Source of the DNA: Escherichia coli
Lineage (GTDB): Bacteria; Pseudomonadota; Gammaproteobacteria; Enterobacterales; Enterobacteriaceae
Assembly (NCBI RefSeq): GCF_041248615.1
Contig: NZ_CP158426.1
DNA: 64,000 bases
Direction: 5' to 3' (one strand)
Shown: positions 32,914 to 40,557 of the stretch, in pieces
How positions within the stretch are numbered: position 1 is the stretch's first letter
Layout: each line of letters begins with the position of its first letter
Made by a program: the position numbers and the translations under genes
The notes under the pieces: generated by a model
What the model was told of the DNA's origin: nothing
The model's input: the letters and a program-made list of their open reading frames with translations, nothing else
Database searches by the model: none

Positions 32914-34452
32914 ATGACCAATAATCCCCCTTCAGCACAGATTAAGCCCGGCGAGTATGGTTTCCCCCTCAAGTTAAAAGCCCGCTACGACAACTTTATC
33001 GGCGGCGAGTGGGTAGCCCCTGCCGATGGTGAGTATTACCAGAACCTGACGCCGGTGACCGGGCAGCTGCTGTGCGAAGTGGCGTCTTCGGGCAAACGAG
33101 ACATCGATCTGGCGCTGGATGCTGCGCACAAAGTGAAAGATAAATGGGCGCATACTTCGGTGCAGGATCGCGCGGCGATTCTGTTTAAGATCGCCGATCG
33201 GATGGAGCAGAACCTCGAACTGTTAGCGACCGCTGAAACCTGGGATAACGGCAAACCCATTCGCGAAACCAGTGCTGCCGATGTGCCGCTGGCGATTGAC
33301 CATTTCCGCTATTTCGCCTCGTGTATTCGGGCGCAGGAAGGCGGTATTAGTGAAGTGGATAGCGAAACCGTGGCTTATCACTTCCACGAACCGTTAGGCG
33401 TGGTGGGGCAGATTATTCCGTGGAACTTCCCGCTGCTGATGGCGAGCTGGAAAATGGCCCCCGCGCTGGCGGCGGGCAACTGTGTGGTGCTGAAACCCGC
33501 ACGTCTTACCCCGCTTTCTGTACTGCTGCTAATGGAAATCGTCGGTGATTTACTGCCGCCAGGCGTGGTGAACGTGGTCAACGGTGCAGGTGGGGAAATT
33601 GGCGAATATCTGGCGACCTCGAAACGCATCGCTAAAGTGGCGTTTACCGGCTCAACGGAAGTGGGCCAACAAATTATGCAATACGCCACGCAAAATATTA
33701 TTCCGGTAACCCTGGAGCTGGGCGGCAAATCGCCAAATATCTTCTTTGCTGATGTGATGGATGAAGAAGATGCCTTTTTCGATAAAGCGCTGGAAGGCTT
33801 TGCACTGTTTGCCTTTAACCAGGGCGAAGTTTGCACCTGTCCAAGCCGTGCTTTAGTGCAGGAGTCTATCTACGAACGCTTCATGGAACGCGCCATCCGC
33901 CGTGTTGAAAGTATTCGTAGCGGTAACCCGCTCGACAGCGTGACGCAAATGGGCGCGCAGGTTTCTCACGGGCAACTGGAAACCATCCTCAACTACATTG
34001 ATATTGGTAAAAAAGAGGGCGCAGACGTGCTCACCGGCGGGCGGCGCAAGCTGCTGGAAGGAGAACTGAAAGACGGCTACTACCTCGAACCGACGATTCT
34101 GTTTGGTCAGAATAATATGCGCGTGTTCCAGGAGGAGATTTTTGGCCCGGTGCTGGCGGTGACCACCTTCAAAACGATGGAAGAAGCGCTGGAGCTGGCG
34201 AACGACACGCAATATGGCCTGGGCGCGGGTGTCTGGAGCCGCAACGGTAATCTGGCCTATAAGATGGGGCGCGGCATTCAGGCCGGGCGCGTGTGGACCA
34301 ACTGTTATCACGCTTACCCGGCACATGCGGCGTTTGGCGGCTACAAACAATCAGGTATCGGCCGTGAAACTCACAAGATGATGCTGGAGCATTACCAGCA
34401 AACCAAGTGCCTGCTGGTGAGCTACTCGGATAAACCGTTGGGGCTGTTCTGA
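32914..34452 (+). CDS. aldB: aldehyde dehydrogenase B
   Basis: ORF 32824..34452; start at ATG 32914 ([17 protein letters not shown]…, 512 aa) preceded by AAGGAG; ALDH motifs ELGGKSP and catalytic Cys region EVCTCPSR. Confidence 0.95.
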
Positions 34453-34729
34453 TATAAGAAGCTGGTCGCATTGGGTATTCATTGCCTGATGCGACGTTTG
34501 CGCGTTTTACCAATTCAAATGTCTACGTCTTGAATGACTGAATATTGATTGAACTTAATTACGAGCATCCTCGCATCTTTTCAACAAGTTACTGCACACC
34601 GTTATTCTCCTTCCGAGCGGCATTCCTGAGTCAACTTTATCCCCCTGACGGCCCATATAAATCGCGCTATCGTGATTGTTATCGCTAATTGTGTGTGTAT
34701 CGTGTGTATAATCATGGAAGGGCAGGGAT

Positions 34730-34915
34730 GTGAAAAGTGCAGACGTGATCGCCATCCTGAAGCAGCATGGCTGGGAACATATTCGAACCCGTGGCAGTCA
34801 TCATCAGTTCCGCCACCCTGTTCATCCGGGTCTGGTGACGGTTCCGCACCCTAAAAAAGATATTAAGCCCGGTACGCTGGCGCAAATTGGGCGTCAGGCT
34901 GGTTTAACATTTTAA
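34730..34915 (+). CDS. hicA: HicA-family mRNA interferase toxin
   Basis: 61-aa ORF (GTG start) MKSADVIAILKQHGWEHIRTRGSHHQFRHP...; HicA/YcfA-like GSHH motif; followed 16 bp later by a HicB-like gene. Confidence 0.7.
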   Translation: MKSADVIAILKQHGWEHIRTRGSHHQFRHPVHPGLVTVPHPKKDIKPGTLAQIGRQAGLTF

Positions 34916-34931
34916 AATTTCAGGAGGCAAT

Positions 34932-35342
34932 ATGTTTTATCCCGCCTATATCCACAGTGATCCTGACGGCAGTGCCAGCGGTTTTTTCCCTGATGTTCCA
35001 GGCTGTTATTTTGCTGGTGATACGCTGGACTACGCTTTCCAGGATGCGCGAAGTGCACTGGTCGCGCACTTCGAAACCTTATGCGAGATGAATGAAGAGT
35101 TGCCGCTTCCAGGCTCTGTGGAAACACATCTGGTCCAGCGTGCGCAGGACTTTATTGGCGGGCAATGGTTGCTGGTGGATATCAATATGAATCAGTTCGA
35201 AGGTCGGGCTGAACGTATCAATATTACGATGCCAAAAAGATTACTGAACAAGATTGATACCTACGTGCGCAATAACCCAGACTATGCCAACAGAAGTGCG
35301 TTTCTGGCGGAAGCTGCCCGGCGTGTATTGCCGGGCGTTTAA
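34932..35342 (+). CDS. hicB: HicB-family antitoxin with C-terminal ribbon-helix-helix DNA-binding domain
   Basis: 136-aa ORF with strong RBS AGGAGG; N-terminal HicB signature …GFFPDVPGCYFAGDT…; C-terminal RHH-like …NITMPKRLLNKID…. Confidence 0.75.
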   Translation: MFYPAYIHSDPDGSASGFFPDVPGCYFAGDTLDYAFQDARSALVAHFETLCEMNEELPLPGSVETHLVQRAQDFIGGQWLLVDINMNQFEGRAERINITMPKRLLNKIDTYVRNNPDYANRSAFLAEAARRVLPGV

Positions 35343-35413
35343 TCTCGCGTTTCGATGGTTGGCGGGCAACCGCACCGATATGTTGATACTGATAAGACGC
35401 GTTAAGCGTCGCA

Positions 35414-37378
35414 TCATGCGCTGGTTTCCTCATTCACCCAGATCCGCATTTCGCCTTCACCCCGGTTGGCCCAGCTAAACCACGGGATAAAGGTCAGGGT
35501 TTGCGGCTGGCGTTTGGCTGGCGCGCTGTCGTAATGCCACAGCGGTTGCTGCTCTGGATTACTTTGTTCATACCGGTAACCCGGTGCCTGGATTAAGATC
35601 TTATGGCTGAACAATCCCTTGCCTTCAAAGGTCGTAAATGGCGCATCGGCGGGCAGCCACAGGTTATGTAGTGACTCGCCGTTGTCGGCCTGTTCCAGGC
35701 AATACACCAGCGGGCCGCGCTGAATCGCCACTTTTCCGGCGACGTGACGCACCAGCGGGTTACCGTAAACGCGGCGTACCGGCATCGGCAAAGTCAGATT
35801 CAGCGTATCGCCCTCCTGCCATTCGCGGGTAATGTGCAAATACCCTTTACGAATATCCTGCCCGACCTCTTCCCCATTCAATATGATCTGCGGCTGTGTG
35901 CACCAGTCCGGCAGACGTAAAGCCAGCGTATGACGCACCGGCTGGGGCGATTCAACCGCAATCGTCACCTGCTCCTGCCACGGATAGTTTCCGCTAACCC
36001 GCAGACGCAGCATGCCATTTTCTACCGGCACTTCCATGCTGTTTCCTGCGTAGATGTTGATATACAACGCATCTTCACGCGGCGTGTAGAGATAATGACC
36101 AATCGAGGTTAGCACGCGGGCGATATTTGGCGGACAACAAGCGCAACCAAACCAACGCTGGCGGATCGGCTTAACGTGATCGTAGATATGGTTGAATTTT
36201 AACGTTTTTGGATGCACTTCCAGCGGATTAACGTAGAAGAAATGTTTGCCATCCAGCGCCATGCCGCCGAGCACGGTGTTGTACAGTGCGCGCTCCATCA
36301 CATCGGCATATTGACTGTCGCCTTCCATTTCCAGCATTCGCCGGGCGAACATCATCAGGCCGATGGAAGCACAGCTTTCGGCGTATACCGTGTCATTCGG
36401 CAGATCGTAATCGCTGCTGAACGCTTCGCCGCTGCTTTGTGAGCCAATGCCGCCGGTAATATATAACTGACGCTGGGCCATATTGTTCCACAGCCGCAGG
36501 CAGTCCTGACGCTTGCTTTCATCGTGACTTAAACGCGCGAGATGCGCGACGGCGGTCATCAGGTAGACAAAACGTACCGCGTGACCAATGGCGGTTTGCT
36601 GCTGTGCGATGGGCAAATGCGCCTGGCTGTAGGCTTTGTCTTTCACCATCCACGCCGGGCCGTAGGTGTGCCAGTGCGAGGTCTGCCCGCGCTTTTCATA
36701 TTCCTGGTCGTAATAGTGCGGTTGCGCACCACGCTGTTCGACAAAATAGTTCGTCAGCGCCAGGTAGCGCGGCTCTTCGGTCACTTCATACAGGCGCATT
36801 AGTGCCAGTTCAATTTCCGGGTGACCAGGATAACCGTGTAACTTACTTTCACCTGGACCAAATACGCTGTCGATATGATCGGCCAGACGGCAAACCACTT
36901 CCAGCAAGCGCCGTTTTCCCGTGGCCTGGAAGAAGGCGACTCCGGCTTCAATCAGATGACCGGCGCAGTAAAGTTCATGACACTCCGCCAGATTGCTCCA
37001 GCGTTCTTCGGGCGCTTTTACCGTAAAGTAAGTATTGAGATAGCCGTCTTCGCACTGGGCGGAAGCGACCAGTTCGATTACCTCGTCGGCGGTTTTTTCC
37101 AGTTCGGCGTCCGGCTTCTGGCACAGCGACCAGGCTACCGCTTCCAGCCATTTGGCGACGTCGCTGTCCTGAAACACCATCCCGTAAAATTCACCCTCCT
37201 GAAGTCCGGCGGCAATGCGAAAGTTTTCAATCGCATGGCTGGGTTCCGCTTCTGGGATACGATCGTTCAAGGCATCCCACTGATAAGGAATCACCACGTC
37301 GCGGACCAGTTGTTGGTACTGACCGAGGAACGGATCGCTGACCGTCAGTTTATGCAGATCGACTTCCGAAATGTTCAT
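35414..37378 (-). CDS. glycoside hydrolase family 127 protein (DUF1680; beta-L-arabinofuranosidase-like)
   Basis: ORF 35414..37426; start placed at the ATG preceded by AAGGAG (MNISEVDLHKL…, 654 aa); contains WFGCACCPPN and YAESCASIG, matching the Cys-rich zinc/catalytic site I recall for HypBA1-type GH127. Confidence 0.8.
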   Translation of the reverse strand: MNISEVDLHKLTVSDPFLGQYQQLVRDVVIPYQWDALNDRIPEAEPSHAIENFRIAAGLQEGEFYGMVFQDSDVAKWLEAVAWSLCQKPDAELEKTADEVIELVASAQCEDGYLNTYFTVKAPEERWSNLAECHELYCAGHLIEAGVAFFQATGKRRLLEVVCRLADHIDSVFGPGESKLHGYPGHPEIELALMRLYEVTEEPRYLALTNYFVEQRGAQPHYYDQEYEKRGQTSHWHTYGPAWMVKDKAYSQAHLPIAQQQTAIGHAVRFVYLMTAVAHLARLSHDESKRQDCLRLWNNMAQRQLYITGGIGSQSSGEAFSSDYDLPNDTVYAESCASIGLMMFARRMLEMEGDSQYADVMERALYNTVLGGMALDGKHFFYVNPLEVHPKTLKFNHIYDHVKPIRQRWFGCACCPPNIARVLTSIGHYLYTPREDALYINIYAGNSMEVPVENGMLRLRVSGNYPWQEQVTIAVESPQPVRHTLALRLPDWCTQPQIILNGEEVGQDIRKGYLHITREWQEGDTLNLTLPMPVRRVYGNPLVRHVAGKVAIQRGPLVYCLEQADNGESLHNLWLPADAPFTTFEGKGLFSHKILIQAPGYRYEQSNPEQQPLWHYDSAPAKRQPQTLTFIPWFSWANRGEGEMRIWVNEETSA

Positions 37379-37388
37379 CTTGTGCTCC

Positions 37389-38789
37389 TTAAGGCTGTAC
37401 ATGACGCTGACGCAGGTCGCTAGCAATGCGTGACATCATAGGGTTATTGAGTTTGCAAAAGCGGATCGCCCCTGCCAGCAGCAGGTGGAATAGCGCAGGC
37501 AGTAATGTTTCCATCGCCGCGATGCCGCCAAGCGAACTGGCGGTCTGGTTTTCCACGCCAGGCTGGTAGGCGACAAAAATAAACAGCAGGCTGATGATCC
37601 CGGCGCTGGAGGCCCAGGCCAGTTTGATGAAAAACAGATTGAAGGCGAAGTTCATGCCGGAAGAACGTACGCGGGTTTTCCACTCGCCGTAGTCATCGGC
37701 AAAGGCCATCAATGAGAAGTGCAATGGCAATGTGAAGCCAAGAATCACGCCATTACCGAGGATCACCGCCAGCCACAGCGTTTGATAAGCCGGGCCAGAA
37801 GGCAGGAACCACATCAACACCGCCAGCGCAGCGAGGAGCAGATTGGTGTAGTAGTAAATTTTGACGGTATCGAAACGCCGCGTTAATGGGCTGACAATCA
37901 CCGAGCCGATAATGGAGGCGAAGGTGACCATGGTGAAGAACAGCGACGTGTAGCCCGTACTGCCTTGTAAGACGTAGGTAATGAAGTACATATACCCACC
38001 GCCGCGAATATTAAAGACGTTAATCAGCAGGAAAGACATGACCAGCATCAGCAGCAGTTGGTCGTTGTTTCGCAGCCCGGCAAGATGTTCGCGCAGGGTA
38101 AATTTCCCCATTGTGGAGAGTGGCACCCGTTCACGAACCCAGAAGAAACAGCACAGGAACATCACCACGGCAATGGCGCACAATACGCCGACGCCCAGTT
38201 GATAGCCGCGCGCGGCATTACCCTGACCGAAGAGATCTACCATCCACGGTAAGCCTACCGAAACCAGAAATCCCGCTACGCCGCAGAGAACGAATCGCCA
38301 GGACTGGCAGGAGATCACTTCATTGTGGCGGGTGGTCATGGTGTTGATCAGCGCGCAGTACGGCACGTTGATGGCGGTATAACCGACTGAAAGGAGCAGG
38401 TAAGTGCCGAACGCCCAGGCGATTTTTACTCCCATGCTGGCATCTGGCACGGTGAACGTCAGGATGCCGATAATGCCGATGGGAATGGCAATCCACAACT
38501 GCCACGGACGAAAGCGCCCCCAGCGACTTTGCGTCCGGTCGGCAATGACGCCCATCACCGGGTCGGAGATGGCATCAAACACGCGCAGTGCAATAAACAG
38601 CGTGCCGACCAGCGCCGGAGTTAAGCCAAAAACGTCGGTGTAGAAAAAGGTGAGAAAGTTCATGATCAGGCAAGTTATTACGGTGCCGCCTGCGTCACCC
38701 AGGCCGTAGCCTATTTTTTCCCGTACAGATAACGCATCGTCAATTTTACCTTTAGCGATATCAGCGGTAGTAATCGGTGTAGAGGTCAT
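37389..38789 (-). CDS. glycoside-pentoside-hexuronide (GPH) family sugar:cation symporter
   Basis: 466-aa 12-TM ORF with GPH signature …[25 protein letters not shown]…; directly upstream of the GH127 gene on the same strand. Confidence 0.8.
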
Positions 38790-39014
38790 AGATGTTCCTC
38801 GTGAATAGGGTGCAATTTTTAGTTTTATTGCAATGACATGATTAATTCTGCCGTGAACGGGAATATCAACAAGGCGAGAAAAGAGTAAAAAAAGGTGACG
38901 ATTCCGACCTGAATTTAAAAGTGTGAATTGGATCAGGTGAAATTAATGTTTTTGATTAATAATCAAAAGGTAATGTGTTTAATCATTAATGAATAAGCGG
39001 GAAATTACATATTA

Positions 39015-39830
39015 ATGCTCGAATTATCCATGACGTTACCGATTAAAGTGCAAAATGGTGGATTATTTATTTCCCGTGGCGTAGGGAGGCATCCGGCAAG
39101 GCGGCTGGAGTCATGGGAAATTATCTTTGTCGAAAAAGGTCGATTAGCGATTCAGGAAGAAGAGCGGATATTTCTGGTCGATGCGGGAGAGAGTTTATTA
39201 CTCTGGCCGAACCGACAGCATGTTGGGGTAGAGGATTTTCCCGCCGATCTCAAATTTTACTGGCTGCATTTTGAGGTTAAAGCGCCGGATAGCGACCCGC
39301 GCTGGCTCACTCATCTTAGCGTGCCGCAACAAACGAAGGTTGCCGATCTGCAGGCGCTGGTGGCCCTGTTTCGCCAGTTCTTAAGCGAACAGGAAAAGCA
39401 TCAACGCACTCCGGCGCTGGAGTTTATTGTGCTGCTGATTTTGCAGCAACTCACCCGTGACGCGCGTCTTGATGAACAGGCCGATGCCGCAGGTACCACG
39501 CTTGCCTGGAAAGCGCAGAAACTGATCCGCACGCAATATCATCGCCCGCTTTCTACGGCGCTTTTAGCCCGCGAGCTGTACTGCAATGCCGATTATCTTG
39601 GGCGTGTCTATCGGCGGGTGTTTCATCTGACGTTAACAGAAGCAATTCATCGCCAGCGAGTGCGCGAAGCCGAAAAGCTGTTAATTAGCGAAGCGCGATC
39701 GCTCACTGAAGTGGCGGCGTTGTGCGGGTTTAATGACGTTGGCTATTTCCGGCAGATTTTTCGCAAACACACCGGTTTAACGCCAGCTGCGTGGAAGCGA
39801 CGTTACAGCAAGGAACATATCAATTCGTAG
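39015..39830 (+). CDS. AraC/XylS-family transcriptional regulator
   Basis: 271-aa ORF with N-terminal cupin-like sensing domain and C-terminal AraC-type HTH pair; divergent from the transporter-GH127 operon. Confidence 0.8.
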   Translation: MLELSMTLPIKVQNGGLFISRGVGRHPARRLESWEIIFVEKGRLAIQEEERIFLVDAGESLLLWPNRQHVGVEDFPADLKFYWLHFEVKAPDSDPRWLTHLSVPQQTKVADLQALVALFRQFLSEQEKHQRTPALEFIVLLILQQLTRDARLDEQADAAGTTLAWKAQKLIRTQYHRPLSTALLARELYCNADYLGRVYRRVFHLTLTEAIHRQRVREAEKLLISEARSLTEVAALCGFNDVGYFRQIFRKHTGLTPAAWKRRYSKEHINS

Positions 39831-39831
39831 T

Positions 39832-39853
39832 GCCGGGGCAATGAAGCCCCGGC
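39832..39853. terminator. bidirectional stem-loop between the convergent AraC-family gene and sgbE
   Basis: Perfect 8-bp GC-rich inverted repeat GCCGGGGC aatgaa GCCCCGGC read directly. Confidence 0.45.
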
Positions 39854-39861
39854 GTGAGGGA

Positions 39862-40557
39862 TTACTGCCCGTAATAGGCATTGGCCCCATGCTTACGCAG
39901 GTAGTGCTTATCCAACAGTTCGATTTGCATCGCAGGGAGCTGCGGCGCAAGCTGGCGCGAGAACAGGCCCATATAGGCGCATTCTTCCAGTACTACGGCG
40001 TTATGCACGGCATCGGCGGCGTTTTTACCCCATGCGAACGGGCCGTGAGAATGCACCAGCACCGCCGGGATTTGTGCCGGACTCCTGCCGCGTTCTTCGA
40101 AAGTTTCAATGATCACTTCGCCGGTCTGGTATTCATACTCGCCGTTAATCTCCTCTGCGGTCATCAGGCGCGTGCAGGGGATGGCACCGTAAAAATAATC
40201 GGCGTGGGTGGTGCCCCAGGCGGGGAGATCCAGCCCGGCCTGTGACCAGATGGTGGCGTGGCGCGAGTGGGTATGCACAATGCCACCGATTTCGGCATAG
40301 CGACGGTAAAGCGCCAGATGCGTTGGCGTATCGGACGAGGGCTTTTTGCTACCTTCCACCACCTTGCCGCTGGCTATCTCAACCACCACCATATCGTCGG
40401 CGGTCATCACGTCGTACTCGACGCCGGAAGGTTTGATTACCATCCATTGCCGCGTTTCGTCTACCGCGCTGACATTGCCCCAGGTGAACGTCACCAGATG
40501 GTGAGCGGGAAGTGCCAGATTTGCCGCCAGCACGTCGGCTTTCAGTTGCTCTAACAT
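39862..40557 (-). CDS. sgbE: L-ribulose-5-phosphate 4-epimerase
   Basis: 231-aa ORF of the class II aldolase/adducin family; last gene of the yiaK-sgbE operon. Confidence 0.93.

Follow-up and report, generated by a model that had tools for sequence, protein, structure and literature searches.

The window analysed here is a 64,000-nucleotide stretch of the Escherichia coli chromosome (NCBI RefSeq assembly GCF_041248615.1, contig NZ_CP158426.1), of which positions 34400-39900 are 100% identical to the record NZ_OW967178.1. Between aldB and sgbE it carries three genes, all with intact open reading frames (ORFs), that form the subject of this work. One encodes a glycoside hydrolase of family 127 (GH127), a putative beta-L-arabinofuranosidase of 654 aa counted from its ATG (35414-37378, minus strand), and the same coding sequence is called by the NCBI annotation pipeline PGAP in NZ_OW967178.1. 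The second, the first gene of the operon, encodes a GPH/MFS symporter of 466 aa (37389-38789, minus strand). A divergent regulatory region of 225 nt (38790-39014) separates it from the third gene, which encodes an AraC/XylS-family regulator of 271 aa (39015-39830, plus strand). These three genes alone make up the module, a self-contained unit of a sensor, an importer and an intracellular glycosidase. An earlier reading of this DNA, referred to below as the first-pass annotation, had placed three genes between aldB and sgbE, and their ORFs agree with it exactly; it had overlooked a further pair, hicA and hicB, which lies between aldB and the GH127 gene and is a neighbouring toxin-antitoxin pair outside the module.

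The GH127 enzyme contains the Pfam domains PF07944 (residues 12-427, 3e-111), PF20736 (438-532) and PF20737 (534-649), that is, the three-domain architecture of this family with an (alpha/alpha)6 catalytic domain followed by middle and C-terminal beta domains. It aligns over its full length to two solved structures, the best match being Geobacillus Ara127N (4qjy; 56% identity, 786 bits, E 3.5e-235) and the other HypBA1 of Bifidobacterium longum (3wkw; 43% identity over ~624 residues, 508 bits, E 3.9e-151). In HypBA1, Cys417 is the nucleophile and Glu322 the acid/base, and a Cys3-Glu zinc site is formed by E338, C340, C417 and C418 (PMC8106489). Alignment of the two proteins placed E322, E338, C340, C417 and C418 of HypBA1 opposite E318, E334, C336, C414 and C415 of the enzyme. 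The motif WFGCACCPPN, which aligns to C415/C417/C418 of HypBA1, is encoded at 36125-36154 (minus strand, from the translation) and supplies C414 as the predicted nucleophile as well as C414 and C415 as predicted zinc ligands. The predicted acid/base E318 and the remaining predicted zinc ligands, E334 and C336, lie in the segment encoded at 36362-36427 (minus strand; translation EAFSSDYDLPNDTVYAESCASI). All residues of the catalytic Cys-Glu pair and of the Cys3-Glu zinc site are thus present, and the catalytic machinery is intact. No signal-peptide character was seen at the N-terminus, which indicates that the enzyme is cytoplasmic, as is HypBA1.

The transporter passed the cut-off of the model TIGR00792 (gph) with 332 bits against 231 and matched MFS_2 (PF13347) over residues 27-448 (9e-73). 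Its nearest named models were YagG-like and then PRK11462, a second GPH-family model, both with scores below their cut-offs, and it remained under every equivalog cut-off of the named E. coli GPH members. YagG and YicJ are partners of xylosidases, so that, with a YagG-like model as the nearest one, the transporter would fall in the pentoside branch of the family. With MelB it shares 30% identity, and the equivalents of R52, D55, D59, T121 and K377 are retained, whereas D19, N58 and D124 are changed. Among the positions that we take to form the MelB cation site (D55, N58, D59 and T121), D55, D59 and T121 correspond to D72, D76 and T138 of the transporter and N58 is replaced by Ser; D124 is replaced by Asn. 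The ATG of the GH127 gene lies 10 nt past the stop codon of the transporter gene, at a junction reading TAA-GGAG-N6-ATG, and this short gap with its GGAG indicates that the two genes form a translationally coupled operon.

The regulator matched AraC_binding (residues 26-131, 4e-8), HTH_18 (184-263, 4e-19) and HTH_AraC. Its C-terminal double helix-turn-helix is characteristic of AraC/XylS factors, and the cupin ligand domain at its N-terminus is a feature of the AraC subgroup. Its best NCBIfam match was AraC, whose cut-off of 208 bits it missed with a score of 61, and its identity to E. coli AraC is 23%. In a MAFFT alignment of 69 enterobacterial intergenic regions, a core of ~110 nt (38827-38935) between the regulator and transporter genes was conserved across genera, with many columns at >=90%. 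This core contains a TGTGA-N6-TCA element, the TGTGA half of which is conserved across genera; read from the sequence and the conservation profile, it is a putative CRP site (TGTGAattggaTCAgg; 38922-38937) resembling the textbook CRP consensus. A simple consensus scan found no consensus sigma-70 promoter in the control region. Activator-dependent promoters normally have no good -35 element, and the missing consensus is compatible with such a promoter, although it proves nothing. Rfam matches in the region were likewise absent. Taken together, the three family assignments made in the first-pass annotation, the WFGCACCPPN motif, the cytoplasmic location of the enzyme, the pairing of transporter and glycosidase, and the divergent orientation of the regulator all held up, and the matches are too strong to be due to chance.

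Relatives of the module were scanned with one genome per species, and the best 80 of 280 relatives were kept. Among these, the triad of a GPH-GH127 pair with a divergent AraC-family gene was found in about 70 enterobacterial species, including Escherichia whittamii, Salmonella diarizonae and members of Citrobacter, Klebsiella, Raoultella, Enterobacter, Kluyvera, Leclercia, Lelliottia, Buttiauxella, Pantoea, Mixta and Hafnia. The triad's neighbour in the majority of these species is sgbE or, on the other side, hicB, yiaT-yiaU or aldB, and often both kinds of neighbour occur together. In Pantoea and Enterobacillus its surroundings consist of housekeeping genes unrelated to it and include no additional glycosidase, which indicates that these three genes are the functional unit. 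Pairwise ratios of nonsynonymous to synonymous substitution rates (dN/dS) against seven species were 0.03-0.15 for all three genes, and those against E. whittamii were 0.03-0.065, showing purifying selection. We conclude that the module is an ancestral enterobacterial locus and that K-12 represents the derived state. Between GH127 proteins of Bradyrhizobium (for example locus L077, 3615-5711) and the E. coli enzyme the identity was 71-73%, an unusually high value for alpha- versus gammaproteobacteria; the Bradyrhizobium loci contain no GPH or AraC-family partner, and at four of the eight a gene of the S9 prolyl-oligopeptidase family lies immediately upstream of the GH127 gene.

K-12 MG1655 does carry yiaT, yiaU, yiaV and yiaW between sgbE and aldB, as the first-pass annotation had stated, and it also carries the pseudogenes ysaC and ysaD beside sgbE. 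We found that ysaC (b4648) represents the 3'-terminal 104 nt of the AraC-family gene (window 39727-39830) and that ysaD (b4649) corresponds to positions 35516-35705 of the GH127 gene. Because these two remnants abut at one junction, K-12 must have lost the 4,021 bp between them (35706-39726, defined by blastn against NC_000913.3 and the junction sequence) in a single deletion; no convincing microhomology was found at the junction. The same genes are therefore present in K-12 at the same position, but only as stumps. The first-pass annotation had named the presence of these genes at this position in K-12 as grounds for rejecting its claim, and the stumps go half of the way towards that. K-12 lacks the genes in intact form, but novelty of the module relative to K-12 is refuted, K-12 being a deletion mutant.

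The central claim of the first-pass annotation, that the module stands in place of yiaT-yiaW, is wrong. Strain M9 and the O157:H7 strain Z866 both carry the complete order aldB-yiaW-yiaV-yiaU-yiaT-GH127-GPH-AraC. We then counted both gene sets in 5,426 complete E. coli genomes, taking >=80% coverage as a full-length module. The module was full length in 2,312 genomes, present as fragments only in 2,473 and without any match in 641, and yiaTUVW was found in 3,728-3,810 genomes; these counts require that at least about 600-700 genomes hold both. The module and yiaTUVW lie next to each other as two distinct blocks. An explanation closest to that claim would be the horizontal acquisition of an accessory island that took the place of yiaT-yiaW in the lineage of the window, since K-12 has yiaTUVW without intact module genes and the window has the module without yiaTUVW. 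This explanation is refuted by the coexistence of both gene sets in M9, in O157:H7 and, by arithmetic, in at least ~600 genomes, by the stumps that K-12 keeps at the same position and by the synteny of the locus across genera. Moreover, no insertion sequence elements, notable direct or inverted flanking repeats, tRNA genes or plasmid copies were found at the module, and its GC content is like that of its flanks. We regard such a replacement as having practically no chance of being correct.

Within E. coli the module has been lost repeatedly, and deletions have arisen independently in the aldB-sgbE interval (window 34453-39861), which is a hotspot for them. The interval was seen in at least five structural states: yiaWVUT together with the module; yiaWVUT with the ysaD'/ysaC' stumps, as in K-12; hicAB together with the module, as in the window; aldB adjoining a frameshifted GH127 gene, as in NZ_OZ040015.1; and the state of CFT073, in which the whole interval is lost and aldB and sgbE are 46 nt apart. 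Such variability, together with the restriction of the full-length module to 2,312 genomes and the undetected sigma-70 promoter, could mean that in E. coli the module is a relic, decaying or cryptic, which phylogenetic inertia has preserved although the species no longer expresses it or benefits from it. In the window, however, the three ORFs are intact, the dN/dS values against E. whittamii are as low as given above and similarly low across genera, the regulatory core is conserved, and a promoter dependent on an activator would normally show no good -35 element in any case. A relic therefore appears improbable to us.

The flanks of the module show further differences between strains. Upstream in the window lie selB, yiaY and aldB (plus strand, aldB ending at 34452), followed by hicA (34730-34915, plus strand) and hicB (34932-35342, plus strand), both called as ORFs and by PGAP. 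The 136-aa product of hicB is labelled a HicB-family antitoxin by PGAP, and it had no NCBIfam match at E <= 1e-3; the label presumably derives from a different model. On the other side, sgbE (39862-40557, minus strand) is followed by sgbU, sgbH, lyxK, yiaO and yiaN. The hicAB segment of the window, present in 505 of the 5,426 genomes, occupies the yiaWVUT position of other strains; compared with M9, the window has kept hicAB beside aldB, and what is missing from it is precisely the yiaWVUT block. The 3' end of hicB with its hairpin (TGCCCGGCGTGTATTGCCGGGC; window 35259-35371) recurs at ~82% identity in the aldB-yiaW gap of K-12, M9 and O157, and the same hairpin (TGCCCGGCGTGTATTGCCGGGC) lies inside the 46-nt aldB-sgbE spacer of CFT073 (locus L086, 9259-9304). 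These remnants suggest that hicAB once stood beside aldB in the lineages of K-12, M9, O157 and CFT073 too. At several loci of Pseudocitrobacter, Lelliottia and Enterobacter, a hicB homologue is located between the GH127 gene and yiaT and not beside aldB; the toxin-antitoxin pair is an old, positionally variable resident of the interval. In O157:H7 Z866 the entire yiaK-sgbE operon beside the AraC-family gene is gone, and all that is left before ysaA is part of an IclR-family (yiaJ-like) gene (locus L003, 10408-10548). O157:H7, CFT073 and NZ_OZ040015.1 have a gene for a Fic-family protein between yiaY and aldB (loci L003, 1-363; L086, 10951-12246; L004, 2870-4165), which is absent from the window and from K-12. 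In CFT073, yiaL and yiaM are moreover separated by an additional gene, for a DUF4862 protein (locus L086, 1777-2697), that K-12 does not have.

What, then, might the module do? It is very probable that the three genes serve as an inducible operon for the import and hydrolysis of some glycoside. The more specific reading that we favour, to which we give a probability of roughly 0.6, is the inducible import and cytoplasmic hydrolysis of a small beta-L-arabinofuranoside, with the L-arabinose released passing into araBAD. In this scheme, the regulator would bind the glycoside or its product via the cupin domain and activate the divergent promoter, probably together with CRP; the GPH symporter would import the glycoside with a cation, either H+ or Na+; and the cytoplasmic GH127 enzyme, as a retaining glycosidase with the zinc-held nucleophile C414 and the acid/base E318, would release L-arabinose for the resident araBAD pathway. 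Since the unit contains no secreted enzyme, its substrate would have to be freed by others, which may be other gut or plant-associated organisms or the plant itself. The most likely candidate substrates are beta-1,2-arabinobiose or arabinofuranosyl-hydroxyproline (Araf-Hyp) fragments of extensin-type hydroxyproline-rich glycoproteins. A beta-L-arabinofuranoside as substrate is also favoured by the probable pentoside branch of the transporter and has a precedent in the beta-Ara2 pathway of B. longum described below. Two features of genomic context give weak hints at the substrate class: the usual neighbour of the enterobacterial locus is sgbE, a paralogue of L-ribulose-5-phosphate epimerase, and the S9 prolyl-oligopeptidase gene beside the 72%-identical enzyme of Bradyrhizobium fits hydroxyproline-rich glycopeptides. 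We consider this functional reading reasonable but unproven.

The assignment of beta-L-arabinofuranosidase activity (EC 3.2.1.185) on terminal beta-L-arabinofuranosyl residues remains putative, the one line of evidence for it being relative similarity. The similarity of the enzyme was by far the strongest to 4qjy and HypBA1 (786 and 508 bits), both deposited as beta-L-arabinofuranosidases. Lower scores were obtained for 6ex6 (387 bits), which we take to be the Zobellia 3,6-anhydro-D-galactosidase, and for 5mqo (320 bits), which we take to be the Bacteroides aceric-acid hydrolase even though its deposited name is beta-L-arabinofuranosidase. The enzyme did not pass the NCBIfam model for aceric acid hydrolases (NF049879), reaching 451 bits against the equivalog cut-off of 950 with a match limited to residues 252-649. 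Active-site residues were considered as evidence of specificity as well and then dropped, for the reason given next.

Several observations weigh against the beta-L-arabinofuranoside reading. The HypBA1 pocket residues H142, H194, H270 and Y386 and the catalytic residues are all kept in the enzyme, but 6ex6 conserves them just as well, and they consequently argue for an active enzyme and not for arabinofuranoside specificity. A 12-residue insertion that carries Q45 in HypBA1 is absent from the enzyme and from Ara127N, and the activity of Ara127N itself rests largely on homology and on the position of its gene in an arabinan operon. The regulator, which by its score and identity is not an AraC orthologue, keeps just two of the five compared positions that we take to contact arabinose in AraC (R38 and W95, but not T24, Y82 and H93). 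The module has been lost from more than half of the complete genomes of E. coli, and at least one frameshifted enzyme gene exists, which indicates that the module is dispensable in many niches. In addition, no biochemical or genetic characterisation of an enterobacterial GH127 operon was found in the searchable literature. Finally, GH127 is a family of several specificities, in which alpha-1,3-(3,6-anhydro)-D-galactosidases are documented (PMC5698469).

These points raise the possibility that the same architecture and mechanism serve another substrate, such as a different furanoside, the glycoside of an unusual sugar, in the manner of the aceric acid and 3,6-anhydro-D-galactose specificities known from GH127, or a plant secondary-metabolite glycoside. 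Besides the polyspecificity of GH127, which is also apparent among the structural matches in the PDB, the non-discriminating active site, the missing Q45 loop and a regulator pocket unlike that of AraC would all agree with this alternative, and sgbE is the sole arabinose-specific neighbour of a triad that also occurs away from it. On the other hand, the bit scores given above place the enzyme by far nearest to entries deposited as beta-L-arabinofuranosidases, and it falls well under the cut-off for aceric acid hydrolases. Sugars of carrageenan and rhamnogalacturonan II are normally accompanied by large polysaccharide utilization loci or sulfatases, which were absent at the examined loci. Overall, we judge another substrate to be rather unlikely, though a good deal less so than a relic, and retain a beta-L-arabinofuranoside as the favoured one. 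The caution of the first-pass annotation that sequence leaves the substrate undefined was well placed.

In thousands of genomes PGAP already labels these genes as glycoside hydrolase family 127, MFS transporter (or GPH:cation symporter) and AraC family transcriptional regulator. A pangenome study reported that a GH127 gene co-segregates with the invasiveness of isolates from inflammatory bowel disease and cited HypBA1 for its function (PMC11879602), and a commentary on that study has appeared (PMC11954838). Work on arabinose use by O157:H7 on plants left the operon unmentioned and said of E. coli that it 'cannot access L-Araf directly' (PMC8489885), although an O157:H7 strain (Z866) carries it. 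A bolder proposal, which we put forward tentatively and at somewhat worse than even odds, is that an unstudied route dedicated to plant beta-L-arabinofuranosides exists in most Enterobacteriaceae and in about 43% of the complete genomes of E. coli, a route that works via a GPH and not an ABC transporter and scavenges beta-arabinobiose or Araf-Hyp from extensins cleaved by other microbes. If true, this would contradict the above statement of PMC8489885, and the presence/absence polymorphism at aldB-sgbE, with the reported co-segregation of GH127 and the invasiveness of adherent-invasive E. coli (PMC11879602) included, would be a real niche determinant. A still bolder variant would be an enterobacterial clade with a new GH127 specificity.

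Should the proposed function hold, the module would confer a carbon-source capability that K-12 cannot show because it deleted the genes, and it would offer a simple test case of how bifidobacteria or plant-degrading microbes and enterobacteria cross-feed on plant-glycoprotein sugars. The origin of the K-12 pseudogenes ysaC and ysaD is explained by the deletion, and the locus provides a clean example of genes that look accessory when K-12 is the reference but may be ancestral ones that K-12 has lost. The findings involve no new enzyme chemistry or system architecture. They do describe a GH127 system with an importer class other than that of the bifidobacterial paradigm, so far uncharacterised in the searchable literature.

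Among known systems, the HypBA1 pathway of B. longum has the logic proposed for the module: extracellular HypBA2 frees the disaccharide beta-Ara2, and HypBA1 cleaves it inside the cell after import (PMC8106489). The GH127 enzymes of the two systems are both intracellular and share the aligned Cys, Glu and zinc-site residues. In contrast to B. longum, whose importer is an ABC transporter with a beta-Ara2-binding protein, the E. coli module has a single-component GPH symporter; it has no GH121 enzyme (HypBA2) or other secreted enzyme, and its regulator is of the AraC type. The enzymes also differ in the 12-residue Q45 insertion, which HypBA1 has and the E. coli enzyme does not, and the arabinofuranosidase activity of the latter is putative. 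The closest solved structure, Ara127N of Geobacillus stearothermophilus T6 (4qjy/4qk0), belongs to the same length class and likewise has no HypBA1 insertion. Its gene, araN, closes a long L-arabinan/arabinose operon in which uptake is by ABC transporters, whereas the E. coli enzyme is encoded in a compact three-gene unit. In its layout the module is akin to melAB/MelR, uidAB, yicJI and yagGH, in which a GPH symporter and a cytoplasmic glycosidase share one operon, and the divergently transcribed AraC-family activator is a further likeness to the mel system; it differs from these E. coli GPH pairs in the family of its glycosidase, GH127 being a cysteine/zinc enzyme. A further comparison is with K-12, in which ysaC and ysaD are 3' stumps of the same AraC-family and GH127 genes at the same chromosomal position beside sgbE: the window holds the intact ancestral genes, and K-12 has the same locus minus the 4,021 bp between the stumps.

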